From the IMG/VR virus record IMGVR_UViG_3300044970_000539, positions 32,001 through 96,000 of that record: a DNA stretch of 64,000 nucleotides. The stretch is one strand, 5' to 3'. Position numbers and translations under genes: made by a program. This document shows, piece after piece, positions 25,965 to 62,782 of the stretch (position 1 is its first letter; each line of letters opens with the position of its first letter). Under the pieces are notes generated by a model. That model had not been told where the DNA came from, searched no databases, and was given only the letters and a program-made list of their open reading frames with translations. Source of the stretch: a virus.

Positions 25965-26038
25965 TACATCTGGAAGGACTTGAACCTTCGGCTCTCTGCA
26001 TATAAGGCAGGTACTCTAACCAACTGAGTTACAGATGC
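25965..26038 (-). tRNA. trnI: tRNA-Ile(TAT)
   Basis: GCATCTG/CAGATGT, CTGC-CTTATAT-GCAG, GTTCAAGTC. Confidence 0.85.
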
Positions 26039-26042
26039 TTAG

Positions 26043-26117
26043 TACACCAGGTAGGACTTGAACCTACGAATAGCCGAATTATGAGTTCGGTGCCTTAACC
26101 AACTTGGCTACTGGTGC
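26043..26117 (-). tRNA. tRNA(CAT): Ile2 or elongator Met
   Basis: GCACCAG/CTGGTGT, CCGAA-CTCATAA-TTCGG; no initiator features. Confidence 0.9.
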
Positions 26118-34098: not shown

Positions 34099-34630
34099 TG
34101 ATTACTCCCCAGCACTTATCGCAGGTAAAGCCATTAGGTAGGGAAACATCATCAACTCTATCTCCTTCTACCCCATCCCAGCAGGGTACACAAATAACAC
34201 AATCATCTAAGTAAACACCAATAGTATTCATTAGTCAAAATACCCTTCTGCCCATAAGCCCTGGAGAAACTGTTGTGCCATTAAGATACCCTCTTTATCA
34301 TCAGGGTCAGTTATATACTTATATGAATTGTGTACAGCATTGCTCATCTTATCTAAATCATCAATGGTATAACCTAACATTATTCTCCCCAATATTCTAC
34401 TATAAGGTTTAATGCACTACAGATACGGCAATCACAAGGGTCTCCCCCCATGTTTTCCATAAATTCAATGTGAGAGAAATTATCCTCACAGATTTGTTCA
34501 ACAAGGTCTTTTACTGTGTAAGGTTTGAATGTGGTAGTCATATATTAATTATAGCCGAAATCCTAGAAAAATACAAATCCTTACGTAATCGTAAAGTGTG
34601 TTTAATATCACATTGTCGAAAAATTTCTTG

Positions 34631-34704
34631 CGATCCGTACGGGACTTGAACCCGTGACCTCCACCGTGACAGGGTGGCGAACTAACCAACTATTCTAACG
34701 GACC
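34631..34704 (-). tRNA. trnD: tRNA-Asp(GTC)
   Basis: GGTCCGT/ACGGATC, CCACC-CTGTCAC-GGTGG, GTTCAAGTC. Confidence 0.93.
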
Positions 34705-42888: not shown

Positions 42889-43218
42889 ATGATTCTTACA
42901 GAAAAAGCAAAACAAAAAGTTTCGGAACTCATAGGAGACTCTCGCATATCTATCCCAGATAGAGAGATCTTCCTAAGAATCTCTGTTCAGCCTGGTGGAT
43001 GTTCTGGACTTAGATATCAAACCTTCTTTGACTATGAAAAGTTAGACGGAGATACGGATTATAACTTTGAAGACTTTACATTAAAGTTAGATAGAATGTC
43101 TGTTCCTTATTTACAAGGGGCTACGCTTGATTTCGTTGACACAATTGAAAAACAAGGTTTTGTACTTGACAATCCCAATGCTCAAGGATCTTGTGCATGC
43201 GGAGACAGTTTTAACTAA
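42889..43218 (+). CDS. iscA: HesB/IscA A-type Fe-S cluster carrier
   Basis: LRI.V.PGGCSG, LDF, F..DNPNA..SCACGDSF; leaderless. Confidence 0.92.
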   Translation: MILTEKAKQKVSELIGDSRISIPDREIFLRISVQPGGCSGLRYQTFFDYEKLDGDTDYNFEDFTLKLDRMSVPYLQGATLDFVDTIEKQGFVLDNPNAQGSCACGDSFN

Positions 43219-44136: not shown

Positions 44137-44334
44137 TTACCACTTTCCTATAGGACACCTAGCATTAGCCAACATTGATTTAGCAGCCATAAAACAACCA
44201 CACTTCTTGCATGTTTGGGTTTTTGGTCTAAAGAAATCACAACCTTTGCAAATCTCTAATCTATGTGCTGCTACCTCTTCAGGACTTCTAGGAGATCCAT
44301 TGAATAGATCCCAAGGCTTTACATCATCACTCAT
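44137..44334 (-). CDS. DUF6171-like Cys-rich protein
   Basis: KPWD...RLEICKGC...CKKCGCFM..K......CP..KW; leaderless. Confidence 0.7.
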   Translation of the reverse strand: MSDDVKPWDLFNGSPRSPEEVAAHRLEICKGCDFFRPKTQTCKKCGCFMAAKSMLANARCPIGKW

Positions 44335-44359: not shown

Positions 44360-45100
44360 CTAATCTAGAAGGTTATTTTTTATTTCAAACAAGACTTTTT
44401 TATCTAAATCAACATCTTTAAATCGGTTGTACCTAGAAAACAAAGACTGCCCTCTGCCAAAAAGATGGGTTGAATCAACGCACTTTCTTGAATACTCATA
44501 CAGTTGCTCATTAATTTTAAACCTTTTTAATACAACCTTTTTGTTTGTTTTAAACTCAACATAGAATAAAGGCTCATTATCTTCAAACTTTATCTCTCCC
44601 TTATTTTTCCATGTTTGAATTTCAAAAAGATAGGGTCTAAACCACTTTCCAATATTGAACTCTCCTGGAATTACAGATCCATAGTTTGTATATGTTGGTT
44701 TATGAAAATATGGCGGAGTAAAAAATGCATCAACAGACTCTTCTGAAAAAAAATGATATTGCAGATCAAACAAAAATGTAGGGCCATAAGATAACATCGG
44801 GCTCCTATCATTTTTAAAATTATAATAGTTGCCATTAACGCTAGAAATAAGTCTTTTTCCATCTGAGAAATCATACCTATATTCGCAATCCATTGTTCCT
44901 TTAAATACAAATGTATTTTTTGCTTTGTTAGATATTGCAGGGCATGTAAAATAAGAGCCTGTATTTTCTCTTTGTACCTTATTTTCACGCATGTCATCAA
45001 ATAATGATTTTGGTTTTGGATAGAACAAAGGATTGTCATTTATTCCTTTACTTGTTGAACTATCGGACCAGTATATGACTATTTCATCTTTTTTTGACAT
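44360..45100 (-). CDS. DUF6065-like hypothetical protein
   Basis: IYWS, CPA, FFSEE, TPPY.H, PGEFNIGKWFRP, EPL.Y..F. Confidence 0.6.
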   Translation of the reverse strand: MSKKDEIVIYWSDSSTSKGINDNPLFYPKPKSLFDDMRENKVQRENTGSYFTCPAISNKAKNTFVFKGTMDCEYRYDFSDGKRLISSVNGNYYNFKNDRSPMLSYGPTFLFDLQYHFFSEESVDAFFTPPYFHKPTYTNYGSVIPGEFNIGKWFRPYLFEIQTWKNKGEIKFEDNEPLFYVEFKTNKKVVLKRFKINEQLYEYSRKCVDSTHLFGRGQSLFSRYNRFKDVDLDKKVLFEIKNNLLD

Positions 45101-46597: not shown

Positions 46598-47371
46598 GTG
46601 AAAATAAAAAATAAAAAAGAATCTAAAGACTATGTTGACATTTATTGGTCTTCATATGGGGAAAAAAATCAAAACTTTCACAGAATGTTGATGGATGTTG
46701 CTCCAGAAAAAATGACAGCCGATCTAATAAAAAACAAGGCTATCTCTCCAAAAATACCAAAAGTTGAAACATTTCAGGCAAACGGATATCAACAATGTTC
46801 TGCTCTACATACACTTTCAAAAAATATGTTTGTTATAAAGTCTCCAATTTCTGCAAAAATACAATTTAATGAAAATGGAGAAATAATAAAAAACACTAAA
46901 GACTCTATCTTCTTTAATGAAAGAGCATCTTCACTAAAAGATTCTTTTTCATTTGATTTTAATTTTGGATATTTATTTTTTACAGATGAAGAAAATGTCA
47001 ATATTACACTAACGCCAGCATATATACATAAAACTTCATACAGAAATGATGCCTTTCTTGCCCCTGCAAAATTTAGCATATCTTCATGGTTAAGGCCAGT
47101 TACTTTTATTTTTCAGATGTGGGAAGAATCAAAAACGTTTGAGTTAAATCAAGGAGATGCCATAGGATATATTTCTTTTGATACAGAAAAACCTATCAGA
47201 TTTCATCAATTTATGGTAACTGACGATATTGTAGATCAGGTGTCTGCCTGTATAAACTATAAATATTTTAAAAAGTTTGTTCCAATGAAGGACCTATATG
47301 ATTTATTTAAAAGAACATCTTTAAAAAATGTAGTTTTAAAGGAAATAAAGAAAAATGTTATATCTGATTAA
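46598..47371 (+). CDS. DUF6065-like hypothetical protein, paralog of 44360-45100
   Basis: IYWS, C.A, FFTDE, TPAY.H, F.ISSWLRP; leaderless GTG. Confidence 0.6.
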   Translation: MKIKNKKESKDYVDIYWSSYGEKNQNFHRMLMDVAPEKMTADLIKNKAISPKIPKVETFQANGYQQCSALHTLSKNMFVIKSPISAKIQFNENGEIIKNTKDSIFFNERASSLKDSFSFDFNFGYLFFTDEENVNITLTPAYIHKTSYRNDAFLAPAKFSISSWLRPVTFIFQMWEESKTFELNQGDAIGYISFDTEKPIRFHQFMVTDDIVDQVSACINYKYFKKFVPMKDLYDLFKRTSLKNVVLKEIKKNVISD

Positions 47372-49596: not shown

Positions 49597-50625
49597 ATGG
49601 CAGCAGAATCAATAGGAGCAATATACTCCACAAAAATTCCAGGGTATGCAGACAATGCTGATATTCAGGCTGCCTTTAAATTATATCATTACGGATCAGC
49701 AGAATACAATAGTGCTAATGCTAATACCGCAAACCTAGTAAACCCATCTATTGCATATACCTTAAATGACATTCAATCACAAATTACAGCACTTGATCCA
49801 GCAGGTGGAATATCAAAATCTATAATTGATGCCAAGGGTGATTTGTTAGTAGGCTCTGCAAATGATACAGTAGATAATCTTACAGTAGGAAGTAATAACT
49901 TTATATTAACTGCAGACTCTTCACAAACACTTGGAATTAAGTGGGCTGCGCCAGAAATTACTGCTACCAATACGGTTACTTTTACAAATAAGTCAGTTTC
50001 TCTTGCAACTAACACATTGACAGGTACAATTGCACAATTTAACACAGCAGTATCTGATGCTGACTTTGCAACACTAGCAGGTACTGAGACCCTCACAAAC
50101 AAGTCAATTTCTCTTACAAATAACACATTAACAGGAACTAAGGCACAATTTAATACTGCAATGTCAGATGCAGATTTTGCAACAATTGCAGGAGCAGAAA
50201 CTTTAACAAACAAGACTTTAACTAGCCCAATAATCAATACAGCAACAATAAGTTTAGGAGCACAGATAGATGGTGGTGGATATACTTACAAGAATCTTCA
50301 TCCATCTACAACTGTTGCCACAGCATCTGCAACTCCATCAATTGCAGTAAATACAGATTCATATTATGTTTTAAATAACTCTGCAAACACTGTCTCAGCA
50401 ATGACAATTACCTTTACGGGTTTTGCAACAAGCGGAACAGCACATGCTTGGCAAGTAGAAGTAGACCGTGGATCTGGAACTTTGGCATTAACATGGCCAG
50501 CAGCAGTGGTTTGGGATGGTGGAACTGCACCATCAACAACGGCAAGCAAAAAAACAGTCTTTACATTTTTAACTCGTGACGGTGGAACAACTATTTATGG
50601 TGGAACAGCATTTGGAGCAATCTAA
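49597..50625 (+). CDS. tail fibre with 37-aa tandem repeat and WP..V.W.GG.AP tip domain
   Basis: DAKGDLLVG, two copies of TNKS.SL..NTLTGT.AQFNTA.SDADFAT.AG.ETL, tip WPAAVVWDGGTAP...DGGTTIYG. Confidence 0.75.
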   Translation: MAAESIGAIYSTKIPGYADNADIQAAFKLYHYGSAEYNSANANTANLVNPSIAYTLNDIQSQITALDPAGGISKSIIDAKGDLLVGSANDTVDNLTVGSNNFILTADSSQTLGIKWAAPEITATNTVTFTNKSVSLATNTLTGTIAQFNTAVSDADFATLAGTETLTNKSISLTNNTLTGTKAQFNTAMSDADFATIAGAETLTNKTLTSPIINTATISLGAQIDGGGYTYKNLHPSTTVATASATPSIAVNTDSYYVLNNSANTVSAMTITFTGFATSGTAHAWQVEVDRGSGTLALTWPAAVVWDGGTAPSTTASKKTVFTFLTRDGGTTIYGGTAFGAI

Positions 50626-51536
50626 TGCTTCCACACATTATTCTATTAACTAGAAAACAAAAATCACTACCACTGAGTGCAACATGGTCTACTGGATTTG
50701 TAGGTGGATCAAGCCAGTATTGGACAAACGCATATGGAGTAGTTTCTGTTACAGATGGAACAAATCTACTTTCTGGATTAGACTATAATGGTTCAACATT
50801 AAGTGGAACCAATATGTTTTATTTATCACCATCGACTGGCTATGCTTGGACCGCTGGTACAACCTATCCATTAGCAGCAGATGTTCAAGTCGCTGAATTT
50901 TTAACTCCATATTTTTATTTTATTGGAGGGGGAACTGCTTCAGCAACTTCATATATAACAAATGGAACTGCAAGTAGTTGGACAGCAATTGCAAGCACAA
51001 ATAAAGGAAGAAGGCAAGGTGGATTAGCAAAAATTGGATCAACTTTATATGCTTTTGGTGGCCTTGGTAATGGCTCCAATGAAGGGGGTACTAACTGGGA
51101 ATCATATAACGGATCTTCATGGATAAATGGAGGAAATACTCCAGCATTCATTGCAAATACATCAAATGCGGCAAAAACAATTGGAAGCAATATTTATTTA
51201 TTGAGTTTTCTTGCATTTTATAAATTTGATGGAGTCAATTTTACTGCATTAACAAGTCCTCCAGTAACTGCTAGATATTCAGCAAATACTGTTCTTAATG
51301 GTAGGTTTTATATTATGGGCGGACAAGGTGTTTCAGATTTTTTTCCACACGCTTTAGTTCATTCAACAGATGCAAATGGAGCAACTTGGCAAGTAGAAAC
51401 ACCTCTTCCATACGGAAGATATTTTGGATCTGCAGTAACATATCTTAATCAAATTTTTAATTTTGCAGGACAAGGTACTGGTCCAGATACAGGAGTAAGT
51501 TACCAAAGAACAATTTATAGAAACAACCAAACATAA
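50625..51536 (+). CDS. Kelch-like beta-propeller, putative fibre-tip adhesin
   Basis: Repeats FYFIGG, LYAFGG, FYIMGG, IFNFAG with Y..W spacing. Confidence 0.75.
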   Translation: MLPHIILLTRKQKSLPLSATWSTGFVGGSSQYWTNAYGVVSVTDGTNLLSGLDYNGSTLSGTNMFYLSPSTGYAWTAGTTYPLAADVQVAEFLTPYFYFIGGGTASATSYITNGTASSWTAIASTNKGRRQGGLAKIGSTLYAFGGLGNGSNEGGTNWESYNGSSWINGGNTPAFIANTSNAAKTIGSNIYLLSFLAFYKFDGVNFTALTSPPVTARYSANTVLNGRFYIMGGQGVSDFFPHALVHSTDANGATWQVETPLPYGRYFGSAVTYLNQIFNFAGQGTGPDTGVSYQRTIYRNNQT

Positions 51537-51545
51537 GGAGAAAAA

Positions 51546-51845
51546 ATGAGAGAATATACAGTAAGAGTAACTCAAGAAGAAGGAAAGCATGTAGCCTGGA
51601 TTGACATTGATGGAAGTCCAGTTATCAAACAACTTTCTAGACCTGGGTCACAAGAAGGTGAATTCTTTGAAAGTTCTGCAGATGCTAATTCATGGGCAGA
51701 TTCACATGTGCTAGAAATTCAGGCATCAGAACAAGCACAACTAGAAGAAGTTGCTAGACAAGAAGCCTTAGTTGCACAAGCACAGGCAGATTCAGAGAGA
51801 CTTTTAAGAATTGAAGAAAAGTTAGATCAGTTATTAAATCCTTAA
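51546..51845 (+). CDS. small acidic partner protein
   Basis: I.Q...P....F.S...A..WA; AAGGAG RBS. Confidence 0.65.
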   Translation: MREYTVRVTQEEGKHVAWIDIDGSPVIKQLSRPGSQEGEFFESSADANSWADSHVLEIQASEQAQLEEVARQEALVAQAQADSERLLRIEEKLDQLLNP

Positions 51846-51889
51846 ACAAAATAATGTTATAATGAAAACAACATAAGGAGTTTTATAAA

Positions 51890-52798
51890 ATGCCATTGCT
51901 GGGTGCTCGTGGAGGTGGATCTGTAAGAGGGTTTGGTCGTTTTGGCAAAGCCTTGCTTTTATCCTTTATAGACAACCTTAATAGATCAACCTCTGGAACT
52001 TTGGGAACATCAAGTGATGGCAAGGGAATATGGTCAAATATAAGAGGAGCCTGGATTGGAAATGGCTCTTCTGCAATTAACGCAGATGCAGCATCTAATA
52101 ATAGTATTACAACAATAACTCTTGATGGATCAACAATTACAAATGCACAAGTTGATGTTAATGCAAGCGGAGGAGTAGGGTTATCTTTCTGGGTAACAGA
52201 TGCTAATAACTACTATGCTATTTTTCCATCTTATAATTTAACAACTTCTTCATCTACAACATGCTCTTTAGCATCAACAAATTCTGGACAGAATAATTAT
52301 TCTGGATTTTGTGCAAATGGAAATTCTTACAGTGTTCCAGAGTGGGAATGCTACGGACCAGGCTTTGGTCAATATGCATATTGCTCGGGCAATAACTGTT
52401 GTTATAATTTTGGATCAGGCTGGAATCCAGGAGTACAATGGAGCACCTCCTTTTACACAAATGGTACTAGAAATCAAACAATTGTTACATCAAACTATAC
52501 ATCAAGAGTAAATTTAAAAAAAGTTGAATCTGGATCAGAAACTGAATTAATAAGTTCAAACTATAACTCTAGCAGTTCAGCCTATTCTAAGACTAACTCA
52601 ATTGCAATTAGTACATCAGGTGACACAATATCTTATAGTTTTTACAGCGGTACAGGAAAAAGTGGATCCCTACTCGCATCTGGATCAAATACTCCATCTA
52701 GTCCAATAAAAGGAAATAAGATAGGTCTATTTAAAGGAACATCTATAACAGAACAAGGCAGCACATTAAATAATATTGAAGTAACCGTAACCGCATAA
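51890..52798 (+). CDS. MPLLGARGGG-family protein 1 with Cys-rich variable insert
   Basis: Conserved ends shared with 53245 and 61319; 6 Cys confined to the middle. Confidence 0.8.
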   Translation: MPLLGARGGGSVRGFGRFGKALLLSFIDNLNRSTSGTLGTSSDGKGIWSNIRGAWIGNGSSAINADAASNNSITTITLDGSTITNAQVDVNASGGVGLSFWVTDANNYYAIFPSYNLTTSSSTTCSLASTNSGQNNYSGFCANGNSYSVPEWECYGPGFGQYAYCSGNNCCYNFGSGWNPGVQWSTSFYTNGTRNQTIVTSNYTSRVNLKKVESGSETELISSNYNSSSSAYSKTNSIAISTSGDTISYSFYSGTGKSGSLLASGSNTPSSPIKGNKIGLFKGTSITEQGSTLNNIEVTVTA

Positions 52799-52846
52799 AA
52801 CTTTAATGATAGAACTTAACTACTAGGAAATATAGGGAGAATACAT

Positions 52847-53191
52847 ATGAGTGAGATGACAGAAGAAGAAATAAATCAACTAACACCAAAAAAGGTAGCA
52901 TTTATAATTGATGGTGAGGTTGTTGACATTGTAGGTACAGATGAAAGGCTTGCTGCAATATTTTTAAGCCAACCAACTATGGTTGATGTTACTGGACCAG
53001 ATGGAAGTTCAACAACGGACATAGGTTACAGTTATGATCAAATAACTGGAGAATTTAGAGAACCAAAACCATATGAGTCTTGGATTTTTGATCAAGAAAG
53101 AAGTCGCTGGAGAGCACCAGTAGAGTTTCCAATAGATGGAAGAAGTTATACTTGGGATGAGGAAACAATTTCTTGGAATTTACAGTCCTAG
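52847..53191 (+). CDS. TDERLA-family partner (possible assembly chaperone)
   Basis: PKKVAFIIDG.VVD...TDERLAAIFLSQP...PKPY.SW. Confidence 0.75.
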   Translation: MSEMTEEEINQLTPKKVAFIIDGEVVDIVGTDERLAAIFLSQPTMVDVTGPDGSSTTDIGYSYDQITGEFREPKPYESWIFDQERSRWRAPVEFPIDGRSYTWDEETISWNLQS

Positions 53192-53244
53192 TTTATTTTA
53201 AAATAAATTATGATATAATAAAAACAACATAAGGAGATTTATAA

Positions 53245-54183
53245 ATGCCAATGATGGGTTCTCGTGGTGGGGGTTCCATAAGAGGTTTTGGCCGTTTTGG
53301 CAAGAACATATTACTTGCTTTTCTTGATTCTTTAAATAGAACAACCTCTGGCTCCCTTGGAACATCAAGCGATGGTAAGGCTGTGTGGAAAAATGTTAGA
53401 GGAACCTGGCAAGGAAATGGAAGTGCTGGTTCTTCAAACGCCGCAGCATCAGGAAACAATATTGCTGTTGTAGACTTAGATGCAACAGTTATTTCAAATC
53501 TTCAGGTTGATACAGGAAACACTTCAGGAGTTGGACTAGCATTTTGGGTAACAGATGCTAACAACTGGTGGGCATCAACAACATCAAACTCAACTAGTTC
53601 TTATAACTATTCAACTTGCACTGGAGGAGGATCTGGCCTACAGGCAGGTGGTTGTCCAGGAAGTTGTTTTGGAGCATGTGGTGGTTGTAACCAATCATCA
53701 AGTTACTACGTTTGGTATGTTTATTGCAATTATGGTCGTGGCTATCAGACATGGACTACAACATCAAATACATTTCAGGTTGCTGAAATTGGACAGGGTG
53801 CTTGCCAATACTATGGTGGGCAGCCTAATTACAGAGACTCAGTTACTGCATATGGATGTTCGTCAACTACCCAGTCATTTTCAGGAACTAACTACCTTTC
53901 TAACTTTAAGTTACTAAATAATTCAGGAACGGTAGTAAATACAGAGTACAATACAAACACATCTGCATTTGCTTCTGCAGGATCAATAGCAATTTCAACT
54001 GTAGGAAACGTAATTACATACTCAGTATATTCTGCAGCAAATAAAGGTGGCAGTTTATTACATACTGGAGCATATACAGCAACAACCCCAACTAAGGGTC
54101 CTGGAGTTGGAATCTTTCATAGTGATGGTGGATCAAACCAAGGCTCTTCTGTAAGTAATTTTAGTGTAACGACAGTACTATAG
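53245..54183 (+). CDS. MPLLGARGGG-family protein 2 with Cys-rich variable insert
   Basis: 8 Cys confined to the middle. Confidence 0.8.
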   Translation: MPMMGSRGGGSIRGFGRFGKNILLAFLDSLNRTTSGSLGTSSDGKAVWKNVRGTWQGNGSAGSSNAAASGNNIAVVDLDATVISNLQVDTGNTSGVGLAFWVTDANNWWASTTSNSTSSYNYSTCTGGGSGLQAGGCPGSCFGACGGCNQSSSYYVWYVYCNYGRGYQTWTTTSNTFQVAEIGQGACQYYGGQPNYRDSVTAYGCSSTTQSFSGTNYLSNFKLLNNSGTVVNTEYNTNTSAFASAGSIAISTVGNVITYSVYSAANKGGSLLHTGAYTATTPTKGPGVGIFHSDGGSNQGSSVSNFSVTTVL

Positions 54184-54195
54184 GAGATAAAACAA

Positions 54196-54483
54196 GTGTC
54201 AGAAAATAATAATAATCTTACACCAAACAAGTTAGCAGTTATTACAGATAACGTTGTAATGGATGTTTTACATACAGATGAAAGATTGGCTGCAATATTG
54301 TTAAGTCAGCCCACAGTCCTAGAGTTAACAGAAGAATATGAAGAAGTAAATTCAAGAATTGGAAATGTTTATGATGAATCTACTCAAAAATTTATGCCAC
54401 CATCTCCAGGGCCATCACATGTTTGGAATGAAGACATTAAAGGTTGGGTTATCCGAGAAATTTTTGATACTCTTGAGCCTTAA
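54196..54483 (+). CDS. TDERLA-family partner
   Basis: PNKLAVI.DNVVMDVLHTDERLAAILLSQP; GTG start with AGGAG. Confidence 0.75.
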   Translation: MSENNNNLTPNKLAVITDNVVMDVLHTDERLAAILLSQPTVLELTEEYEEVNSRIGNVYDESTQKFMPPSPGPSHVWNEDIKGWVIREIFDTLEP

Positions 54484-54521
54484 GTAAATTTCAATAAAAA
54501 ATAAAACAAAATATAAATAAT

Positions 54522-54557
54522 AAAAACCCCCAAGGATTTCTCCAAGGGGGTATTTTA
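54522..54557. terminator. bidirectional terminator
   Basis: A-tract, CCCCC-..-GGA-TTTC-TCC-..-GGGGG, T-tract between convergent genes. Confidence 0.65.
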
Positions 54558-54568
54558 TTTGTATAAAA

Positions 54569-55114
54569 CTATTTAGGAAATTTATTCATCCACATTCTAG
54601 TTTTAGGTGTTATGCCTTTCCAAGAAGACCAATCTTCTCCACCCCTAGACATATAGTATGCAATCTCAGCATTTTTTACTGGATTAAATAATTCAGCGTT
54701 AGAGTCAAGATCAAACTTATCTCGTCTGTCTGGACCCAAGTTATCAATCATATTAATTTGAAACACCCCGTAGGATGAGTCCCCAGTCTTATGGTTTCCG
54801 TTAAATGCTAAAGGACGACCATTAGATTCTTTCTTGGCAATAGCCCAAGCCACTACTAAATCATTACCTCTAAACCCAACAAGGTGAAGAAGGTCTTTTA
54901 ATTCAACATCTGTAAGATGTGTTTTGTTTTCATAACGTTCTAACATTTTTGCTTTAGAAACAACAAAAGCCACCTTGTGGGTGGCAGCAGGGTTTTCAGC
55001 CTGTTTAATTAGTAAGTTATTTTCCGTACTTGACGCATTGGCAAAGTTGCTAAATGGTGCAACAACCCCTACCAATGCTAGGATTCCAATCCAAGCCTTT
55101 AAATCTCTTCTCAT
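54569..55114 (-). CDS. secreted lysozyme-like/SLT transglycosylase
   Basis: Signal peptide; AIAKKES.G, SYGVFQIN, LFNP..NA..AY, W..W. Confidence 0.85.
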   Translation of the reverse strand: MRRDLKAWIGILALVGVVAPFSNFANASSTENNLLIKQAENPAATHKVAFVVSKAKMLERYENKTHLTDVELKDLLHLVGFRGNDLVVAWAIAKKESNGRPLAFNGNHKTGDSSYGVFQINMIDNLGPDRRDKFDLDSNAELFNPVKNAEIAYYMSRGGEDWSSWKGITPKTRMWMNKFPK

Positions 55115-55260
55115 AATAAAAACCTCCTAGAGACTAAAAATGCTACTTGTTAGTAGCATGTATTAATTATAACATGAATTTGGCTTTAAAGTCAAACTTT
55201 GGATAACATTTTAATAACTTTTTAATTTTTATGCGGGGAAGTGGTATAATAATAAGTACT

Positions 55261-55788
55261 ATGGCTACTGGTGCAACTACAACTTATGATCTTCCTTACC
55301 CCCTTTTAACTGACCCTGTAAATGTCCATGAGGATATTCAGTCATTAGCAGAAAAAATAGAAGATGTTATTTCAAACGTTGGTCTTCCTTTTATTTCACT
55401 TGAAGTTAGAAATACAACAGGTGCAACAATTGCAAAAGGAACTCCTGTATATATTTCAGGGTATTCAACAAAACCATTAATTGCAAAATCTGACTCAGAT
55501 GATCTAGCAACATTTCCAGTGGTAGGAATAACACAAGCATCAATTGCAAATAACGCAAATGGAGTAATTATTATCTCTGGAGTGTTTGAGGACATTGACA
55601 CTTCTTCTTATACCGCTGGAGAAATATTATATGTTGCAAATGGTGGAGGACTTACAGATACGATCCCAGCAGGTGGATCAGGTGCGGTAGCAGTAGTTGC
55701 TAAATCAAATGCATCAACTGGAATAATTATTGTTGGACAACCAAAAGGCAATGGAACGTGGGGATCAATGAAAGCAGGTTTGGCATAA
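55261..55788 (+). CDS. minor tail/virion protein
   Basis: TT.YDLPYP...D.VNV..DIQ.LA; RNTTG.TIAKG.PVY; G..LYV...GGLT. Confidence 0.7.
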   Translation: MATGATTTYDLPYPLLTDPVNVHEDIQSLAEKIEDVISNVGLPFISLEVRNTTGATIAKGTPVYISGYSTKPLIAKSDSDDLATFPVVGITQASIANNANGVIIISGVFEDIDTSSYTAGEILYVANGGGLTDTIPAGGSGAVAVVAKSNASTGIIIVGQPKGNGTWGSMKAGLA

Positions 55789-56201
55789 TGGCAACTTTAA
55801 GAGGTCAAGGCGCATCTACATACGACATTGGTGAAAAGCCACCATTTGTTAACTGGACTATCGTAAAAGGCGATACAGCATCATTTAAGATCTACCTAAC
55901 AGATGATACAAAGCAGCCTTTAACTATTTCTGATTGGACAATAGAGGCAGAGTTTAAGAGACCAACCACAATAGTTGATCCTCAAATAATTACGGACACT
56001 GCAACATTAATTTTTACAATTAATCCAGCACAAGACCAAGATGATGAAGACGGAGAGTTTAAGGTTAATCTAACTGCAGCACAAACTGCACAGTTAAGAA
56101 CAGATGACATATTTGACATTGAACTACGTCTTCCACAAAATACCCTTGTATGGACAGTTGCTCAAGGCAAGATTACCCTGATTGAGGATGTTACAAACTA
56201 A
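55788..56201 (+). CDS. small tail/baseplate-type protein (RGDT family)
   Basis: WTIVKGDT...FDIEL...WTVAQG.I..IEDVT. Confidence 0.65.
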   Translation: MATLRGQGASTYDIGEKPPFVNWTIVKGDTASFKIYLTDDTKQPLTISDWTIEAEFKRPTTIVDPQIITDTATLIFTINPAQDQDDEDGEFKVNLTAAQTAQLRTDDIFDIELRLPQNTLVWTVAQGKITLIEDVTN

Positions 56202-56422
56202 TGGCAACGGTTACTATAAATAGTAACAATCCCGTTGCTACAAAAATTATTGAAAGAGTTTCTTTTCCAAAAGCAGAGATTGTTGATTTAAATCGTGGTA
56301 TAAGTATAAACTCAGTATTGCCATTTAGAATAAGATTCACGGCAATACAGATACCCAACAGTATTGGAAATGTACCAGCAATTCCTTTGCAGGTCATTGG
56401 TTTCTCTAACTATATACTTTAA
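56201..56422 (+). CDS. hypothetical virion-region protein
   Basis: 73 aa, TAATG-coupled. Confidence 0.6.
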   Translation: MATVTINSNNPVATKIIERVSFPKAEIVDLNRGISINSVLPFRIRFTAIQIPNSIGNVPAIPLQVIGFSNYIL

Positions 56423-56443
56423 AATATATGATATAATTCAGAC

Positions 56444-56884
56444 ATGGCGAAAATATCATTAGCAAACGTAAAGGCCCTGTTTCAGACAGGTGATAGACCA
56501 ACCGAAGCAAACTATGTTGACTTAATTGACACCTCTGCAGCCCAGGCAACAGATCTGGGTACTGCTGGTAACAACGAAGTAACAATCACTGGTATTGAGA
56601 ACAGCACAATCTTTGATAATTTTACTGCCTCAGAATGGAGATCCGTTAAGTACGTGGTCACATTAAAGAAGAGCACTGGAGACAAGTTCTTCACAACAGA
56701 GTTAACCATAGTCCCTGATGGTACAAATGATAACGTCAGTGAATATGGAACAGTAGACAATGATGGGAATATTGGCACCATTAGCGTCTCTAGGGCAGGA
56801 GGCACAGTTAACCTAACTGTAGTTCCCGTGGTGGGTCAGACCCCGATTACCTTACGCTACATGCGTACTGGTTTGAAGGCTTAA
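56444..56884 (+). CDS. virion structural protein (leaderless)
   Basis: FQTGDRPT...Y.DLID; C-terminal domain SVKY...SEYG related to the C-terminus of 56900. Confidence 0.7.
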   Translation: MAKISLANVKALFQTGDRPTEANYVDLIDTSAAQATDLGTAGNNEVTITGIENSTIFDNFTASEWRSVKYVVTLKKSTGDKFFTTELTIVPDGTNDNVSEYGTVDNDGNIGTISVSRAGGTVNLTVVPVVGQTPITLRYMRTGLKA

Positions 56885-56899
56885 CCAAGGAGATAATAA

Positions 56900-59023
56900 A
56901 TGGCAACAATAACAAAAGACTTTAGAGTAAAGGCTGGATTAGTAGTTGAGGGAGCAACCGCAACCGTTGAAGGCCACGATATTCTTACAAAGAAGATTGC
57001 AGATGCAAAAGGTGATTTGCTAGTTGGTACTGCAGATAATGCAATATCTAAATTAAGCGTTGGAACAAACGGACACGTCCTTACAGCAGATTCTGCTGAA
57101 GCAAGCGGAGTCAAGTGGGCAGCCCCTGCAGCAGTTGGAGTATTTGATACATCAATTACTTTTGAAGGTGCAACAGCAGATGATTATGAGACAACTCTTA
57201 CAGTAGTAGATCCAACAGCAGACCGCACAATTACACTTCCTAACGTATCAGGTACTGTAGTTACATCTGGTGATACTGGTACAGTTACAGCAACAATGCT
57301 TGCTTCAGATTCAGTAACTACAGTAAAGATTGCAGATGCAAACGTGACTGCAGCAAAACTTGCTACAGACTCTGTAGAAACAGCAAAGATTAAAGATGCT
57401 AACGTAACTGCTGCTAAACTTGCTGCAGATTCTGTAGAAACAGCAAAGATTGTTGACTCAAATGTTACAGCAGCAAAGTTGGCTGCAGACTCAGTTACAA
57501 CTTCAAAAATTCTTGATGCAAATGTTACAGATGCAAAACTTGCTTCAAACTCAGTTACAAACGCTAAAATTGCAGATTCAGCAGTAAATACAGCCGAAAT
57601 TGCAGACAATGCAGTTACAGCAGCAAAACTTGGTACAGATGCAGTTGAAACATTAAAGATTAAAGATGCAAACGTAACTGCTGCTAAACTTGCTTCAGAC
57701 TCTGTAGAAACAGTAAAGATTCTAAATGGAGCAGTAACAGAAGCAAAGATTGCAGACGGAGCAGTAACTTCAGCAAAGATTCTAGATGGAACCATTGTTA
57801 ATGGGGACATTAATGCAGCAGCAGCAATTGATCAATCAAAGATTTCAGGATTGACAACAGACCTTTCTAATAAACTAGCACTTGCTGGTGGAACAATGAC
57901 TGGCGCAATTGCAATGGGTACAAACAAGATCACAGGTCTTGGAACACCAACTGATGGAACAGATGCAGCAACAAAGTCTTATGTAGACACAACAGTTCAA
58001 GGAATTGACTGGAAAGCGTCTGTAAAGGCAGCAACAACTGCAAACCTAACACTAGCATCTGATCTTGAAAATGGAGACACACTTGACGGTGTAACTCTTG
58101 CTACTGGAGATCGTGTTCTTGTTAAGGATCAGTCAACTGGTTCACAAAATGGTATCTATGTAGTTAAGGAATCTGGTGCTCCAGATCGTTCTACAGATGC
58201 AGATGAGGGTGCAGAAGTAACTGCAAACTTTGCGGTATTCGTAGAGCAAGGAACAGTAAACGCTGACTCAGGATTTACATTAACAAATAACGGTTCAGTT
58301 ACAATTGGAACTACAGCACTTGCTTTCACACAGTTTACTGGCCTTGGACAAATTATTGCTGGTACAGGATTAGACAAGACTGGAAACACTCTTGATATTG
58401 ATTCAACTGTAACAACAAACGATGGAGTTCAAACCCTTACTAACAAAACTATCAATGGTTCAAGTAATACTATTACAAATGTTTCTTTAACTACTGGAGT
58501 TACAGGAACACTTCCTGTTGCTAACGGAGGTACTGGAATAACATCACTTGGAACAGGTATTGCAACATTCCTTGAAACTCCATCTTCTGCAAATCTTGCA
58601 GCAGCATTAACCGATGAAGCAGGAACTGGAACAGTAGCATTTACTGATAGTCCAACCTTTACTACACCAACACTTGGTGCAGCAGCAGCGACAAGCATTG
58701 CTTTTGCAGATGCTCTTGTTGGTTCTGCTCTAGCAACTGCTGGAACATCAGCAACTACAATTGATACATGGTCAGCAACAACATACTCTGCTGCTAAGTA
58801 CATTGTTCAAATGAAAAAGGGCAATGACATTGAAGTAATTGAAGTTCTTGTTGCAGTCAACGGAAGCAATGATGTTTACTTAACAGAGTACGCAAATGTA
58901 CAAAGTAATACAGAACTTGGAACAACAAATGCTGTCTACTCAGGTGGTAATGTTCTTCTACAGGTAACTGGAGCAGCAGCAGATACTGTTGTTAAGGTTC
59001 ACAAGACTTATATCGAAGCATAA
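56900..59023 (+). CDS. long tail fibre with 10-aa VT.AK repeats
   Basis: Many VTAAKLATDS/VETAKIKDAN repeats; DAATKSYVD; GDRVLVKDQ...NGIY. Confidence 0.85.
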   Translation: MATITKDFRVKAGLVVEGATATVEGHDILTKKIADAKGDLLVGTADNAISKLSVGTNGHVLTADSAEASGVKWAAPAAVGVFDTSITFEGATADDYETTLTVVDPTADRTITLPNVSGTVVTSGDTGTVTATMLASDSVTTVKIADANVTAAKLATDSVETAKIKDANVTAAKLAADSVETAKIVDSNVTAAKLAADSVTTSKILDANVTDAKLASNSVTNAKIADSAVNTAEIADNAVTAAKLGTDAVETLKIKDANVTAAKLASDSVETVKILNGAVTEAKIADGAVTSAKILDGTIVNGDINAAAAIDQSKISGLTTDLSNKLALAGGTMTGAIAMGTNKITGLGTPTDGTDAATKSYVDTTVQGIDWKASVKAATTANLTLASDLENGDTLDGVTLATGDRVLVKDQSTGSQNGIYVVKESGAPDRSTDADEGAEVTANFAVFVEQGTVNADSGFTLTNNGSVTIGTTALAFTQFTGLGQIIAGTGLDKTGNTLDIDSTVTTNDGVQTLTNKTINGSSNTITNVSLTTGVTGTLPVANGGTGITSLGTGIATFLETPSSANLAAALTDEAGTGTVAFTDSPTFTTPTLGAAAATSIAFADALVGSALATAGTSATTIDTWSATTYSAAKYIVQMKKGNDIEVIEVLVAVNGSNDVYLTEYANVQSNTELGTTNAVYSGGNVLLQVTGAAADTVVKVHKTYIEA

Positions 59024-59043
59024 TTTAGGGACGGGAGTCAACT

Positions 59044-59502
59044 ATGGCAACAGTAAATAAAGACTTTAAGGTAAAACATGGGCTTAATGTAGCCGAAGGT
59101 GGTACTTTTGGTCAAGCAGTCGTAGTTGGCACCCCAACCGAAAATACACATGCCGCTACTAAGGCATATGTAGACGGTAGAGAACTTCTTGTAGCGCAAG
59201 GCTCTACACCACCAAGCGATCAAAATTCATCAAATGGTGAACTTTTTATTGATACTGCTGAAAATAGACTTTTGTTTTATTACAATGGTCAGTGGAACAC
59301 TCTTGCACTATTAAATGACACAATTGAAATAGCGCAACACATCCACGATACATCAATTGGTGGAACTGGTTTGATTGTTTCAACATTTAAAGATGCAGGA
59401 TTCTATAACGAGGCTGGCGCAGAAGAAGATGCTGGTTTTTATAATACTAACAGTTGGTCTGCCACATATGATGGTGGAATTGCAACAGAAGTATATAATT
59501 AA
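59044..59502 (+). CDS. short fibre/virion protein
   Basis: KDFKVK.GL, HAATKAYVD. Confidence 0.7.
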   Translation: MATVNKDFKVKHGLNVAEGGTFGQAVVVGTPTENTHAATKAYVDGRELLVAQGSTPPSDQNSSNGELFIDTAENRLLFYYNGQWNTLALLNDTIEIAQHIHDTSIGGTGLIVSTFKDAGFYNEAGAEEDAGFYNTNSWSATYDGGIATEVYN

Positions 59503-59544
59503 AAACTGATATAATATGATCATACACCAATGGAGGAGTAAATA

Positions 59545-60996
59545 ATGGCAACAAGAATGCAACAGCGTAGAGGTACCGCATCACAGTGGACATCTTCTAA
59601 CGATGGCGATGGTCCAATCCTAAATGCTGGAGAAATCGGCTGGGAATCAGACACAAATAAATTTAAGATTGGCGATGGAGTAACTTATTGGGTTGACCTT
59701 AAGTATTTCGTAGACGCAGAAGATGTTATTGCAGCATCTCTTGGATCATACCTCCAGGATTCAGACGTTGGAGCAATCTCTGGTGTAGCAGGACTTGATG
59801 CAAGCAAGAATCTAGTGGTTCCTGGAACATCTATCCACATAGAGGGCGCAACAGATAATGCAAACGAAACAACTTTAACTGTAGTAGACCCAACTGCTGA
59901 CAGAACAATCACTTTCCCTGACGCAACAGGAACTGTTCAACTTAGAGTTACAGATGTTGATGATACAGAAATTGGATACCTAAATGGTGTTACTTCTGCA
60001 ATCCAGACACAGATGGATGCAAAGGCTCCACTAGCAGGCCCAGCACTTACTGGAGATGCAACAGCAGTTAACTTGACAATTTCTGGCAACCTAACAGTTA
60101 ATGGAACGACAACAAATATTAACTCAACCAACCTTGTAGTAGAAGATAAGAATATCGTTCTTGGAGATACAGCATCACCTACTGACACAACAGCAGATGG
60201 TGGCGGTATCACAATCAAGGGTGCAACAGATAAGACTTTTAACTGGGTAGACGCTACAGATGCATTTACGTCTTCTGAGCATATCAACCTTGCTTCAGGT
60301 AAGTCTTATTATGTAAACGGAACACTTCTAAAGGATGTTTCAGAGACTCTTACCAACAAAACTCTTACTAGCCCAACTTTGACAACACCAGCACTTGGTA
60401 CTCCAGCATCTGGAACTCTTACAAATGCAACTGGGTTGCCAGTAGACACAGGTATATCAGGTCTTGGTACAGGAGTAGCAACATTCCTTGCAACTCCATC
60501 ATCTTCAAACCTTGCCTCAGCAGTTACAGATGAAACAGGTTCAGGAGCACTTGTATTTGGAACATCTCCAAGCATTGCCTCACCAACTGTTACAGGTACT
60601 ACAAAGATTGCACAAATTCTTGAAACTACAACGGTATCAGCAACTGCAGCAACAGGTACAATTAACTATAACGTACTAACAAACGGAGCAGTAACATACT
60701 ACACATCAAATTCAAGCGGTAACTGGACATTAAACCTACGTGGAGATGGTTCTACAACGCTTAACTCAATCATGGCAACTGGACAGTCTCTAACTATAGC
60801 ATTTTTAGTTACAAACTCTACAGCCTACTATCAGAGTGGATTCCAGATTGACGGATCATCAGTTACTCCAAAGTGGCAAGGTGGAACAGCCCCTTCTGCA
60901 GGAAATGCTTCATCAATTGATATTTATACAATAACTGTAATTAAAACAGGAGATGCAGCATTTACTGCATTTGCTGCTCAAACAAAGTTTGCATAA
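59545..60996 (+). CDS. tail fibre with Mtd_N/hyaluronidase-like N-terminus and WQGGTAP tip domain
   Basis: QRRGT..QW...GEIG.E.DT.KFKIGDG; C-terminal [20 protein letters not shown]...IKT...FA. Confidence 0.85.
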
Positions 60997-61047
60997 ATAG
61001 TATATAATGAAGTAGTAGTAAAACATTATATAGAATAGAGGAGAAGC

Positions 61048-61263
61048 ATGACCACAGAACCAGAGACTATAGAGATGCCACCAATCAAGGTAGCATTTGT
61101 TATAGACAATACAATTGTTGATATCTTGCATACAGATCGTCGCCTGGCTGATATATTTTTAAGTAATGGCGTTGTAGTAGATATAACCTCAAATACCGAA
61201 AGCATTCAGTTTGGCTGGATCTATAACCCAGAAACTGGACAGTTTTCAGAACCAGCATTATAA
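61048..61263 (+). CDS. TDERLA-family partner (orphan, short)
   Basis: PIKVAFVIDN.IVDILHTDRRLA.IFLS. Confidence 0.7.
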   Translation: MTTEPETIEMPPIKVAFVIDNTIVDILHTDRRLADIFLSNGVVVDITSNTESIQFGWIYNPETGQFSEPAL

Positions 61264-61318
61264 GTAAATACTTATATCATTTCATGCTATAATGAAAACA
61301 ACATAAGGAGATTTATAA

Positions 61319-62242
61319 ATGCCATTGCTAGGTGCTCGTGGAGGCGGATCTGTAAGAGGGTTTGGTCGTTTCGGCAAGAACTTGCTTTTAGCATTAATTG
61401 ACTCATTTAACAGAACAACATCTGGAAATCTTGGAACATCAAGTGATGGTAAGGGTCTTTGGAAAAACGTTGTAGGAACTTGGCAAGCAAATGGAAGTTC
61501 TAGTGTTTCTAACGCTCTAGCATCAGGAAATAACGTTGCTGTTGTTGATTTAGATGGAACAAACATCACCAATCTTCAGGTAGATACTGGCTCAAATGGT
61601 GGTTCTGGGCTATCCTTTTGGGTAACAGATGCTAATAACTACTATGCTTTCTATCCATCATACACATCCTCTTCAGCAACAAACACAACATGTTCATTAC
61701 AACAAACAAGACAGGGTGTTGGTTGTGCAGGCTTAGGGTTTTGTGGTGGATGTAGTAGCCCATTTACTATTACTTATTATGAGTGTATTGAAAATCGAAA
61801 CTCACCTAATGATCCAGTTGTCGGCTATCAGGTGTGCTGCAGCCCTAACAACTGTGCACCTAGAGGGTATTCTTCAGGTGCCTCTGAGACTCTATATTAT
61901 GTTACAGGAAATATAAATCAAACTATAACAACTACCACTTATAATTCTATAGCCAATTTAAGAAAAGTTGAAAGTGGATCTGCTACCGATTTAGTTACCA
62001 ATACATACAATACAAACAATTCTGGATTTTCAAAAGCCCAATCTATTGCAATCAGCACTTCAGGAAGTACAATTTCTTATACTCTTTACAGTGCTGCAAA
62101 TAAGGGTGGATCTACTATAGGCAGTGGTTCAAATACTCCATCTAGCCCAGTAAAGGGCCAAGGGGTTGGACTATTCCACGGTACATCAATTGTTGATCAA
62201 GGTTCAACATTATCAAACTTTAGTGTTACAGTTACGCCTTAA
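61319..62242 (+). CDS. MPLLGARGGG-family protein 3 with Cys-rich variable insert
   Basis: 8 Cys confined to the middle. Confidence 0.8.
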   Translation: MPLLGARGGGSVRGFGRFGKNLLLALIDSFNRTTSGNLGTSSDGKGLWKNVVGTWQANGSSSVSNALASGNNVAVVDLDGTNITNLQVDTGSNGGSGLSFWVTDANNYYAFYPSYTSSSATNTTCSLQQTRQGVGCAGLGFCGGCSSPFTITYYECIENRNSPNDPVVGYQVCCSPNNCAPRGYSSGASETLYYVTGNINQTITTTTYNSIANLRKVESGSATDLVTNTYNTNNSGFSKAQSIAISTSGSTISYTLYSAANKGGSTIGSGSNTPSSPVKGQGVGLFHGTSIVDQGSTLSNFSVTVTP

Positions 62243-62253
62243 AGGGGGAAAGA

Positions 62254-62496
62254 GTGTCAGAAACAAAAAAAGCAAGACCTTGGGATATTTTTAATAAAAA
62301 TATAAAAAAAGTAGAAGATGTTGTATCAGAAGAAAGAATGAAAATTTGCAAGTCCTGTCCAGAACTACTTCCTACAGGAAATTGCAAGAAGTGTGGATGT
62401 TTTATGTCTTTAAAAACAAAACTTCCACATGCATTTTGTCCTTTACATAAGTGGGGGGTTGTGGAAGTAGGATACAAGGAGGAAACTAATGAGTGA
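62254..62496 (+). CDS. DUF6171-like Cys-rich protein, paralog of 44137
   Basis: RPWD...RMKICKSC...CKKCGCFM..K..L....CP..KW. Confidence 0.7.
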   Translation: MSETKKARPWDIFNKNIKKVEDVVSEERMKICKSCPELLPTGNCKKCGCFMSLKTKLPHAFCPLHKWGVVEVGYKEETNE

Positions 62497-62782
62497 AGAT
62501 ATACAAGAAGAGATGTTAAACTTAGTACCAAAAAAAATAGCATTTGTTGTTGATAATATGGTAGTAGACGTTTTACATACAGATGAAAGATTGGCTGTTA
62601 TTTTTTTAAGCCAACCTTTAGTTCTGGACGTGACAGAAACATATGAAGAATCACAGCCAATGCCTGGGTATGTTTATTACGAAGATACTCAAACATTTTT
62701 ACCACAATCTCCAGATCCATCCTATGTTTGGAATGAAGAGTATAAGTCTTGGCTTCCACCAATAGATGTTATTCCTGAATAA
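62489..62782 (+). CDS. TDERLA-family partner
   Basis: PKKIAFVVDN.VVDVLHTDERLAVIFLSQP. Confidence 0.75.
   Translation: MSEDIQEEMLNLVPKKIAFVVDNMVVDVLHTDERLAVIFLSQPLVLDVTETYEESQPMPGYVYYEDTQTFLPQSPDPSYVWNEEYKSWLPPIDVIPE

Follow-up and report, generated by a model that had tools for sequence, protein, structure and literature searches.

Three paralogous genes in a 64,000-nucleotide stretch of viral DNA (hereafter the window; bases 32001-96000 of the complete, 105,135-bp IMG/VR virus record IMGVR_UViG_3300044970_000539, which has direct terminal repeats) encode proteins, here called cassettes, in which a conserved frame surrounds an unalignable insert that holds all the cysteines. We consider it fairly probable that the three cassettes are alternative receptor-binding adhesins with a common N-terminal anchor peptide, probably seated on the tip of the fibre encoded by gene 59545 and helped by two small proteins, one of an HTDERLA-type partner family and one of the DUF6171 family. 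Fibre genes are referred to below by their start position in the window.

Three cassette genes share a frame around an unalignable insert

The cassette genes, their inserts and the units before and after them are located as follows (window numbering).

51855-51889, plus strand: upstream unit 1, with the extended -10-like sequence TGTTATAAT and the 16-nt leader AAAACAACATAAGGAG including a ribosome-binding site; direct repeat D2 begins at 51855
51890-52798, plus strand: cassette 1, 302 aa, 6 Cys; N-terminal peptide at residues 1-20, ConA-like scaffold (predicted)
52250-52474, plus strand: cassette 1 knob insert, residues 121-195, unalignable, 75 residues
53210-53244, plus strand: upstream unit 2, TGATATAAT and leader as in unit 1
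53245-54183, plus strand: cassette 2, 312 aa, 8 Cys
53605-53871, plus strand: cassette 2 knob insert, residues 121-209, unalignable, 89 residues
61284-61318, plus strand: upstream unit 3, TGCTATAAT and leader as in unit 1
61319-62242, plus strand: cassette 3, 307 aa, 8 Cys; the protein used for the structure model
61679-61918, plus strand: cassette 3 knob insert, residues 121-200, unalignable, 80 residues
62811-62835, plus strand: terminator-like hairpin and T-run closing unit 3

The three proteins are 43-57% identical in pairwise comparison and are the sole copies in the 105,135-bp genome. The initial annotation had described them as paralogs with a common start and conserved N- and C-terminal parts, and our sequence comparison agrees: all three open with MP(L/M)(L/M)G(A/S)RGGGS(V/I)RGFGRFGK, about 120 N-terminal residues ending in GL.FWVTDANN(Y/W)(Y/W)A are conserved, as are about 105 residues at the C-terminus. 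The inserts had been described as unalignable and as carrying every cysteine (6, 8 and 8), which is borne out at residues 121-195, 121-209 and 121-200, respectively. The first 20 codons vary at synonymous sites among the three copies, so the conservation of the N-terminal peptide (N-peptide) reflects selection at the protein level and not a recent duplication of the DNA.

The 35 nt 5' of each cassette start are nearly identical and consist of the extended -10-like TGnTATAAT followed by AAAACAACATAAGGAG (overall ATGnTATAAT-rAAAACAACATAAGGAG). The DNA repeat among the cassettes starts exactly at this unit, and the 16-mer leader occurs exactly three times in the 64-kb window, with 0.16 occurrences expected by chance. 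Each gene had been credited with a promoter of its own; the common unit indeed stands before each of them, the putative promoter within it being a consensus match only. Likewise, each cassette is followed by an HTDERLA-type partner gene (52847, 54196 and 62489), as had been proposed, while the layout of the third unit has to be amended, since a DUF6171 gene (62254-62496) sits between cassette 3 and its partner. The initial annotation had also not listed a fourth partner-family gene (61048-61263), which comes after fibre 59545.

The insert diverges far faster than the scaffold

Metagenomic proteins yielded 70 close cassette homologs and 64 viral contigs, and a profile search returned 804 clusters at 50% identity, 451 of them below E 1e-10. 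The 50,697 deposited phage genomes contained neither a DNA match nor a protein match to the cassette, and a scan of metagenome contigs gave 14 loci, none of which is a close relative with long flanks.

An alignment of 52 close homologs had its lowest column entropy in the N-peptide (0.5 bits), with 0.9-2.0 bits for the scaffold and 2.0-2.9 bits for the insert (residues 121-200). The same gradient was seen in individual pairs: homolog P0002 matches the two scaffold halves of cassette 3 at 94% and 86% identity and its insert at 25%, and P0022 matches cassette 1 at 90% and 89% in the scaffold and 56% in the insert. Where scaffold identity falls below 70-80%, insert identity drops to a background of about 24%. 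The insert, which we also call the knob segment, thus changes far more rapidly than the scaffold.

In pairs of related viral loci, the knob codons showed raised non-synonymous divergence together with a synonymous divergence (dS) several-fold above that of the scaffold (0.40 versus 0.05 for L011/L006; 1.07 versus 0.16 for L015/L018). The raised dS indicates that knobs are also exchanged by recombination between nearer alleles, and weaker constraint on the knob segment along with its replacement by recombination would be the simplest reading of the pattern. Wholesale lateral exchange of knobs between distant scaffolds was rejected, given that the 52 close homologs contained one mild case only (P0008/P0010). 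A 97%-identical relative of cassette 3 bears the N-peptide variant of cassette 2, a small sign that hints at exchange between paralogs.

Several close homologs fall in pairs on contigs of coinciding size, which hints that cassette arrays are common among the nearest relatives. In addition, long-form cassettes (595 and 780 aa) stand in tandem in loci L016 (2446-7438) and L014, where every cassette has its partner and one DUF6171 gene ends the array; the long paralogs in L016 are 53% identical over their first 310 residues and differ in their knobs. These arrays are an independent repeat of the duplication seen in the window.

A lectin-type sandwich with a predicted stalk and knob

Using an alignment of 71 family members, we modelled cassette 3 with AlphaFold2, which gave a mean predicted local distance difference test score (pLDDT) of 92.2 and a predicted TM-score of 0.77. 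Residues 1-20, corresponding to the N-peptide, were disordered in this monomer model (pLDDT about 51). Beyond them the model is all-beta, and two unusually long strands, 107-132 and 183-218, flank the insert, which itself is built from short strands and one short helix (pLDDT 88-95). As read off the secondary-structure string of the model, the stalk extends about 17 residues per strand past the sandwich. The proposal of the initial annotation, a beta-sandwich projecting a variable cysteine-rich module on a two-stranded stalk, is therefore matched by the predicted structure.

Comparison by VIA-align placed cassette 3 closest to the lectin domain of galactocerebrosidase (GALC; 3zr5, Z 16.3, 165 residues aligned, root-mean-square deviation (rmsd) 2.8), followed by CBM66 (4b1m, Z 16.0) and the C-terminal receptor-binding domain of mycobacteriophage TM4 gp23 (9n6a, Z 15.0, 173 aligned), with 156-173 residues aligned at an rmsd of 2.8-3.0 across these three. 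A baseplate protein of mycobacteriophage Douge (Z 13.8) and CBM2 of the phage J-1 Dit (Z 12.9) came lower. Overall, 156-179 of the 287 ordered residues align, and the stalk and knob fall outside the common core. The neighbours in BFVD, a set of viral models, were uncultured phage proteins and then minor tail or tail-fibre proteins of Arthrobacter, Gordonia, Rhodococcus and Streptomyces phages. A plain Foldseek search against the PDB also gave low-probability hits to pore-forming toxins and to class II fusion proteins, which is not surprising for a long beta hairpin. According to the model, the scaffold has a ConA-like lectin/glucanase fold, a CBM66-like jelly roll. The cassette motifs GL.FWVTDANNYY and G.GLF...QGS..NF.VT are ones that we take to be typical of the CBM66/GH43/GH32/galactocerebrosidase lectin jelly roll. 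At the sequence level, Pfam gave no cassette family at E<=1 beyond noise (Laminin_G_3, DUF1080 and CBM66-type families were not matched), PHROGs held no cassette family, and PDB sequences searched with the cassette family profile contained no relative.

Cysteine parity points to disulfides

The scaffold of the 52 close homologs contains zero cysteine, whereas the insert is 8% cysteine and is enriched in Pro, Tyr, Gln and Gly, and not in histidine (0.4%). The cysteine count was even for 110 of the 117 unique proteins. After clustering at 70% identity it was even for 54 of the 58 clusters, and after clustering at 50% identity for 135 of the 150 representatives, whose counts span 2 to 46 (median 16); of the 149 full-length representatives, 134 were even (binomial p ~5e-25). 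Multiples of four are matched in frequency by counts of 6, 10, 14, 18 and 22. The positions of the cysteines within the insert are not conserved beyond about 4 columns. In the 97%-identical relative of cassette 3, the adjacent pair C173-C174 is lost together.

Even parity not restricted to multiples of four, in combination with no enrichment of histidine, favours disulfides over Cys4 metal sites, as the initial annotation had anticipated, and thus points to disulfide formation among the insert cysteines. Even cysteine parity is reportedly the criterion that Daniels et al. in 2010 applied to exported actinobacterial proteins. As for phage particles, disulfides in tail parts of the freshwater cyanophage Pam3 were demonstrated by mass spectrometry and treatment with dithiothreitol (PMC9942802).

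The genome also encodes a thioredoxin match (66.7 bits; window 16270-16524, genome 48270-48524) with one TAA inside the matched stretch, such that the gene may be shorter than the match or interrupted; it is far from the cassette module and without link to it.

Cassettes, fibre tips and N-peptide types

The cassettes sit among fibre genes, with the collagen-like 47900 followed by 49597, 56900 and 59545. Cassette 3 follows fibre 59545 with a fourth gene of the partner family in between, and cassettes 1 and 2 follow a Kelch protein and a small acidic protein. The fibre that constitutes the candidate docking site is the following.

59545-60996, plus strand: fibre 59545, 483 aa, with an Mtd_N start and a C-terminal tip domain at about residues 350-483 (WQGGTAP, phrog_5906)

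All fetched loci were scanned for open reading frames, and these were screened with profiles for the cassette, for the partner family, for DUF6171 and for the C-terminal tip domain of the 59545 fibre. For short cassettes (<=420 aa) in other phages, a fibre gene almost always lies directly upstream, usually 10-15 nt away. Nineteen of the 35 unique short cassettes with room upstream follow a fibre ending in a 59545-type tip (...W.GG.AP...ID.Y...), and most of the remainder follow a fibre with a different small tip ending in ...LSGQWAAATLIK.... The type of N-peptide varies along with the tip: N-peptides of 24-26 residues and of the type MP(L/I)L(G/S)(S/A)...(R/K)(G/A)(F/Y)G pair with the 59545-type tip, and N-peptides of 12-14 residues pair with the second type. 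Cassettes 1 and 2 of the window are the only ones with the long N-peptide and no adjoining 59545-type fibre. Long forms of 593-780 aa have an N-terminal part of their own with He_PIG and FN3 domains, carry the cassette domain at the C-terminus, and do not follow a gene with a 59545-type tip, which is what would be expected if the short forms borrow a shaft. Together with the N-peptide being the best conserved segment and yet disordered in the monomer model, these sequence patterns make it plausible that the N-peptide docks on the WQGGTAP tip of fibre 59545, as the initial annotation had proposed; one socket would then serve three interchangeable tips.

Additional features were noted among these fibres. 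In the region 49597-51845 of the window, fibre 49597 is followed by the Kelch-repeat protein (50625-51536) and the 99-aa acidic protein, which together may make up a fibre and adhesin set of a second kind; fibre 49597 ends in W.GGTAPS, and since its C-terminus has only this motif in common with the 59545 tip (E 0.079), homology between the two was rejected. Fibre 56900 contains at least six copies of a 60-nt (20-aa) tandem repeat (...TAAKLA.DSV.T.KI.DANV...) at window 57284-57791. A Phage_cement_2 match (31.5 bits) lies at 55231-55788, in the middle of the fibre module.

Two companion gene families

The companion genes and their relatives in the window are the following.

52847-53191, plus strand: partner 1, 114 aa, with an HTDERLA-type core and a phrog_7759-like tail
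54196-54483, plus strand: partner 2, 95 aa, GTG start
61048-61263, plus strand: fourth partner-family gene, 71 aa (HTDRRLA), between fibre 59545 and cassette 3; the same arrangement is found in locus L004
62489-62782, plus strand: partner 3, 97 aa
62254-62496, plus strand: DUF6171 protein, 80 aa, six invariant Cys (CxxC-x8-CxxCxC-x12-C)
44137-44334, minus strand: second DUF6171 paralog, 65 aa, outside the cassette module

Considering the 44 unique cassettes with enough downstream sequence, a partner gene lies downstream of 29, and a DUF6171 gene lies just downstream of 35 by automatic count, or of about 40 when four genes overlapping the cassette end are included. DUF6171 is thus the most constant companion, at about one gene per array, and the exceptions are chiefly cassettes that open a tandem array, cassettes 1 and 2 included. 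The assignment of 62254-62496 to DUF6171 (PF19668) rests on a score of 42.2 bits at a Pfam gathering cut-off of 27, and the six cysteines are invariant in 43 unique sequences. The second DUF6171 copy has a gene for a phrog_7084 protein on one side and, on the other, one of the two phrog_17480 paralogs (44360-45100 and 46598-47371); its place between proteins of unknown function indicates that the family is not tied to cassettes alone. An opposite-strand second copy likewise occurs in L017 and L044. No PDB relative of DUF6171 was found, a search of the ESM Atlas merely confirmed the family, and a literature search returned no paper on it. About 1 kb from the second DUF6171 gene, at window 42889-43218 on the plus strand, lies a gene for an A-type iron-sulfur carrier (Fe-S_biosyn, PF01521, 50.9 bits), for which a link to the cysteine-rich proteins is possible.

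The partner proteins share the core VAF(V/I)IDN.VVD(V/I)LHTDERLA and belong to a family larger than that of the cassettes, with at least 475 proteins, all unnamed and some with two tandem cores. The two-core partners, of 218-243 aa with a W-rich tail (...YP.DGK.Y.WD....W), were found in L006 (7099-7827) and L010 (3636-4289), where they adjoin cassettes of 397-399 aa starting with MAVRKASDSNL; a search for partner forms above 426 aa found none, which is weak evidence. The partner model (pLDDT 81) consists of a beta hairpin, a helix and small strands. The partner had no Pfam match at E<=1, its profile found nothing below E 0.48 among PDB sequences, and the ESM Atlas returned unnamed viral clusters only. 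Complex prediction for cassette 3 with its partner gave scores of 0.00, 0.37 and 0.00, which weigh neither for nor against a complex. Knob-specific co-evolution of the partner was rejected, as partner divergence follows the scaffold (rho 0.74) and not the knob (rho 0.38). One partner copy follows the plain fibre 59545, indicating that the family is not specific to knob proteins, and we read the partner as a putative general helper of fibre-type proteins, not one dedicated to the knob.

A model for the cassettes and its alternatives

Taken together, these observations suggest a model in which each adhesin would comprise a 20-residue N-terminal anchor peptide, a cysteine-free ConA-like lectin sandwich and a two-stranded beta stalk, the latter rising from one edge of the sandwich and carrying a knob of 50-60 residues stapled by three or four disulfides. 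The knob would be the specificity element and would change by fast divergence and recombinational replacement. The common anchor peptide would fix all three proteins at one site of the virion, most likely the C-terminal tip domain of fibre 59545, with cassettes 1 and 2 using this socket in trans, such that a particle could show as many as three binding specificities. Assembly or folding would be helped by the HTDERLA protein and by DUF6171 with its six cysteines, and diversity would arise from gene duplication and ordinary evolution, without a programmed mutator.

Several observations weigh against this model or parts of it. The adjacency of fibre and cassette and the pairing of peptide and tip are also expected from common descent of a gene pair, and the fibre module is far from the tape-measure gene. 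Phage particles assemble in the reducing cytoplasm; a sulfhydryl oxidase (Evr1_Alr) gave no match in the genome, a result tempered by the silence of the control genomes as well. With respect to the helpers, the fold search with the partner found no solved neighbour (best Z 3.0), and partner divergence tracks the scaffold more than the supposed specificity element. The ratio of non-synonymous to synonymous divergence in the knob was 0.01-0.64, below 1 in every pair measured, which speaks for weaker constraint and recombination only, positive selection not being demonstrated. Finally, related complete genomes of 94-109 kb carry one cassette each, so that the three copies represent a lineage-specific expansion and triplication is not needed for function.

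Attachment elsewhere than at the 59545 tip is a serious alternative. The adhesins might be anchored at the baseplate, the tail tube or the capsid, for instance as a Hoc-like decoration that serves loose adherence, with the neighbouring fibre genes reflecting a shared late operon. Cassettes 1 and 2 are not beside a tip-bearing fibre, 16 of the 35 short cassettes have no 59545-type tip gene upstream, and tips of the 59545 class (64-84% identical) occur with N-peptides as unlike as MPLLGARGGGSVRGFG and MPILSSIAGAAAKAYG. Moreover, the distance of the module from the tape-measure gene, the cement-like protein at 55231 and the head-decoration PHROG matches of fibre 56900 leave some room for a capsid or tail-tube location. 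Nevertheless, gaps of about 10-15 nt between fibre stop and cassette start recur in many diverged loci, N-peptide length and type co-vary with the tip type, and the long forms, which own a fibre-like N-terminal part, lack the upstream tip gene, and we accordingly regard attachment elsewhere as unlikely, if still to be reckoned with. A role of the cassettes outside the virion altogether, as late, soluble lectin-like factors freed at lysis that bind host or competitor surfaces or act as decoys, would agree with a promoter-like unit for each gene apart from the fibre operon and with the typically extracellular nature of disulfide-rich proteins. The cassettes are, however, without signal peptide, and a binding partner would best account for an N-terminal peptide that is conserved and yet disordered. 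In addition, other phages have the domain as the end of long fibre-like proteins, and its structural neighbours are tail receptor-binding domains. Together, these points leave this possibility highly improbable.

Regarding the cysteines, the knob could instead be stabilized by metal (zinc or iron-sulfur), delivered by DUF6171 and the phage IscA-type protein. T4 fibre tips contain metal ions, and this alternative would suit assembly in a reducing cytoplasm, the zinc-ribbon-like CxxC...CxxC pattern of DUF6171 in tight linkage to the cassette, and the presence of the A-type carrier. The predominance of even counts, as predicted for disulfide pairing, the frequency of counts that are not multiples of four, the lack of histidine enrichment in the insert and the at most about 4 conserved cysteine columns argue otherwise and make metal binding very unlikely.

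Going beyond the adhesin model with its fibre-tip anchor, the family might represent a phage counterpart of an antibody repertoire, in which lectin-fold adhesins with knobs of 1-23 disulfides evolve and recombine like complementarity-determining regions (CDRs), share one plug onto a common fibre-tip socket, form mixed or heterotrimeric tips, and depend on DUF6171 as an oxidative-folding or cysteine-protecting factor. We consider this extended proposal unlikely at present. If true, the three paralogs would let the phage hedge its bets across several host surface types; we know of no dedicated oxidative-folding or cysteine-protecting function of the DUF6171 kind in phages.

Search for a programmed diversity mechanism

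Knob diversity might also be produced by a programmed mechanism, for example a diversity-generating retroelement, an invertible shufflon or template-directed conversion among the three copies. Fibre 59545 opens with an Mtd_N domain, the shared 5' ends of the cassettes could support conversion, and the 97% relative of cassette 3 has the cassette-2 N-peptide variant. Nonetheless, the complete genome contained neither a reverse transcriptase (RVT_1), in a search to which control genomes responded, nor a serine recombinase (Resolvase family), in a search whose control responded in 12 of 14 genomes, and the initial remark that neither enzyme was in view thus extends to the whole record. The inserts have no flanking inverted repeats, no repeat matches an insert, and all copies lie on one strand with a start of their own, and both a retroelement and an invertible switch were accordingly rejected. 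Templated conversion was likewise rejected: the inserts are mutually unalignable, so none can template another. Overall, a programmed mechanism is already largely refuted, and we give it next to no credence.

Comparison with known systems

Lectin-fold receptor-binding domains and hypervariable tip adhesins are known kinds of protein; the new elements here are an inserted stalk and knob bearing as many as 46 cysteines, the extent of a family not described before, and its two constant companion genes. A functional analogy, invoked already by the initial annotation, is offered by the T-even gp38 adhesins (T2, T6 and Salmonella phage S16), which sit on the gp37 fibre tip and, like the cassettes, are small separate proteins encoded just downstream of the distal fibre gene; gp38 adhesins are also mentioned in PMC9942802. 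In gp38, too, the N-terminal part used for attachment is conserved and the segments that contact the receptor are hypervariable within a constant frame, and exchange of paralogs or alleles of gp38 alters host range. The cassettes differ in their predicted ConA-like sandwich with a disulfide knob in place of a polyglycine-II sandwich with glycine-rich motifs, without sequence similarity, and in the presence of three copies sharing one anchor as well as additional HTDERLA and DUF6171 genes; for the cassettes, tip attachment is putative.

The sandwich fold itself is shared with tail proteins of phages of Actinobacteria or Gram-positive hosts, that is, the C-terminal domain of TM4 gp23 (9n6a), the Douge baseplate and central fibre (8zdo, 8zdp) and the J-1 Dit CBM2 (5ly8), with Z 15.0, 13.8 and 12.9 over 173-179 residues. 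Sequence identity to these domains is only 11-12%, about 85 residues (stalk and knob) lie outside the aligned core, and the cassette domain, unlike them, stands alone as a protein of 300 aa. The scaffold is matched best (Z 16.3 and 16.0) by CBM66 and by the lectin domains of galactocerebrosidase, GH43 and GH32, which are sugar-binding modules of enzymes, none with a stalk-and-knob insertion. For this insertion, the bovine ultralong CDR-H3 provides a likeness of architecture, since it has a two-stranded beta stalk and a hypervariable knob set by a variable, even number of disulfide-bonded cysteines. There is no homology between the two: the cassette frame is a lectin sandwich and not an immunoglobulin domain, its disulfides are putative, and its diversity would come from evolution and recombination among phage lineages and not from somatic mutation.

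The Mtd-type proteins of diversity-generating retroelements (Bordetella phage BPP-1) are comparable as fibre-tip proteins with a massively variable binding surface on a fixed scaffold, and fibre 59545 has the Mtd_N domain; the cassettes, in contrast, do not have a C-type lectin fold, and neither a reverse transcriptase nor a template repeat accompanies them. Similarly, the Mu Gin and P1 Cin switches employ a serine invertase and inverted crossover sites, neither of which was found at the cassettes in the complete genome. As to the companions, the HTDERLA partner resembles the tail fibre assembly proteins (lambda Tfa, Mu U, P2 G, T4 gp38/gp57A) in its small size and in the position of its gene, which immediately follows that of a fibre or adhesin across widely diverged phages, including the plain fibre 59545. 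It matched neither Caudo_TAP nor any other Pfam family, and its predicted beta-hairpin-plus-helix core had no solved neighbour, though a distant relation to these proteins may exist.

To our knowledge, next to nothing has been established about how phages recognize uncultured freshwater Actinobacteria, and the cassette family, with its 804 clusters, is a concrete candidate for a specificity element in such phages. The sharp borders between the constant lectin frame and the replaceable knob may permit metagenomes to be typed for phage-host specificity. Binding diversity is rarely achieved by way of a stalked, hypervariable mini-domain stapled by disulfides. This solution is otherwise best known from bovine antibodies, and its presence in phages would amount to convergence and provide a possible source of small, stable binders. 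That cassette, HTDERLA protein and DUF6171 travel together suggests testable roles for two families of unknown function, and the proposed disulfides raise the question of how a cysteine-rich virion protein folds in the reducing cytoplasm.

Source genome, probable host and further genes

The source is an uncultured tailed phage. WhiB proteins are a hallmark of Actinobacteria and their phages, and the genome has a WhiB-family gene (window 19326-19499, genome 51326-51499) scoring 45.9 bits at a cut-off of 23.6, with Corynebacterium the only control genome to respond. The large terminase is 55% identical to that of Streptomyces phages of about 131 kb and also matched Gordonia phages. The host is probably an actinobacterium; combined with the actinophage tail proteins among the structural neighbours and a G+C content of 32-42%, the WhiB and terminase matches make a low-G+C freshwater actinobacterium the likely host. 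Seven tRNA genes (Asn, Gly, Glu, Arg-TCT, Ile-TAT, Met and Asp) are located at window 12734-12959, 25813-26117 and 34630-34704.

The sole minus-strand gene of the fibre module, 54569-55114, encodes a signal-peptide-like N-terminus and an SLT_3 lysozyme-like domain (59 bits), and its product is probably a secreted lysin. To this gene belongs the best sigma-70-like promoter match of the region (11 of 12, TG extended), at 55195-55166.

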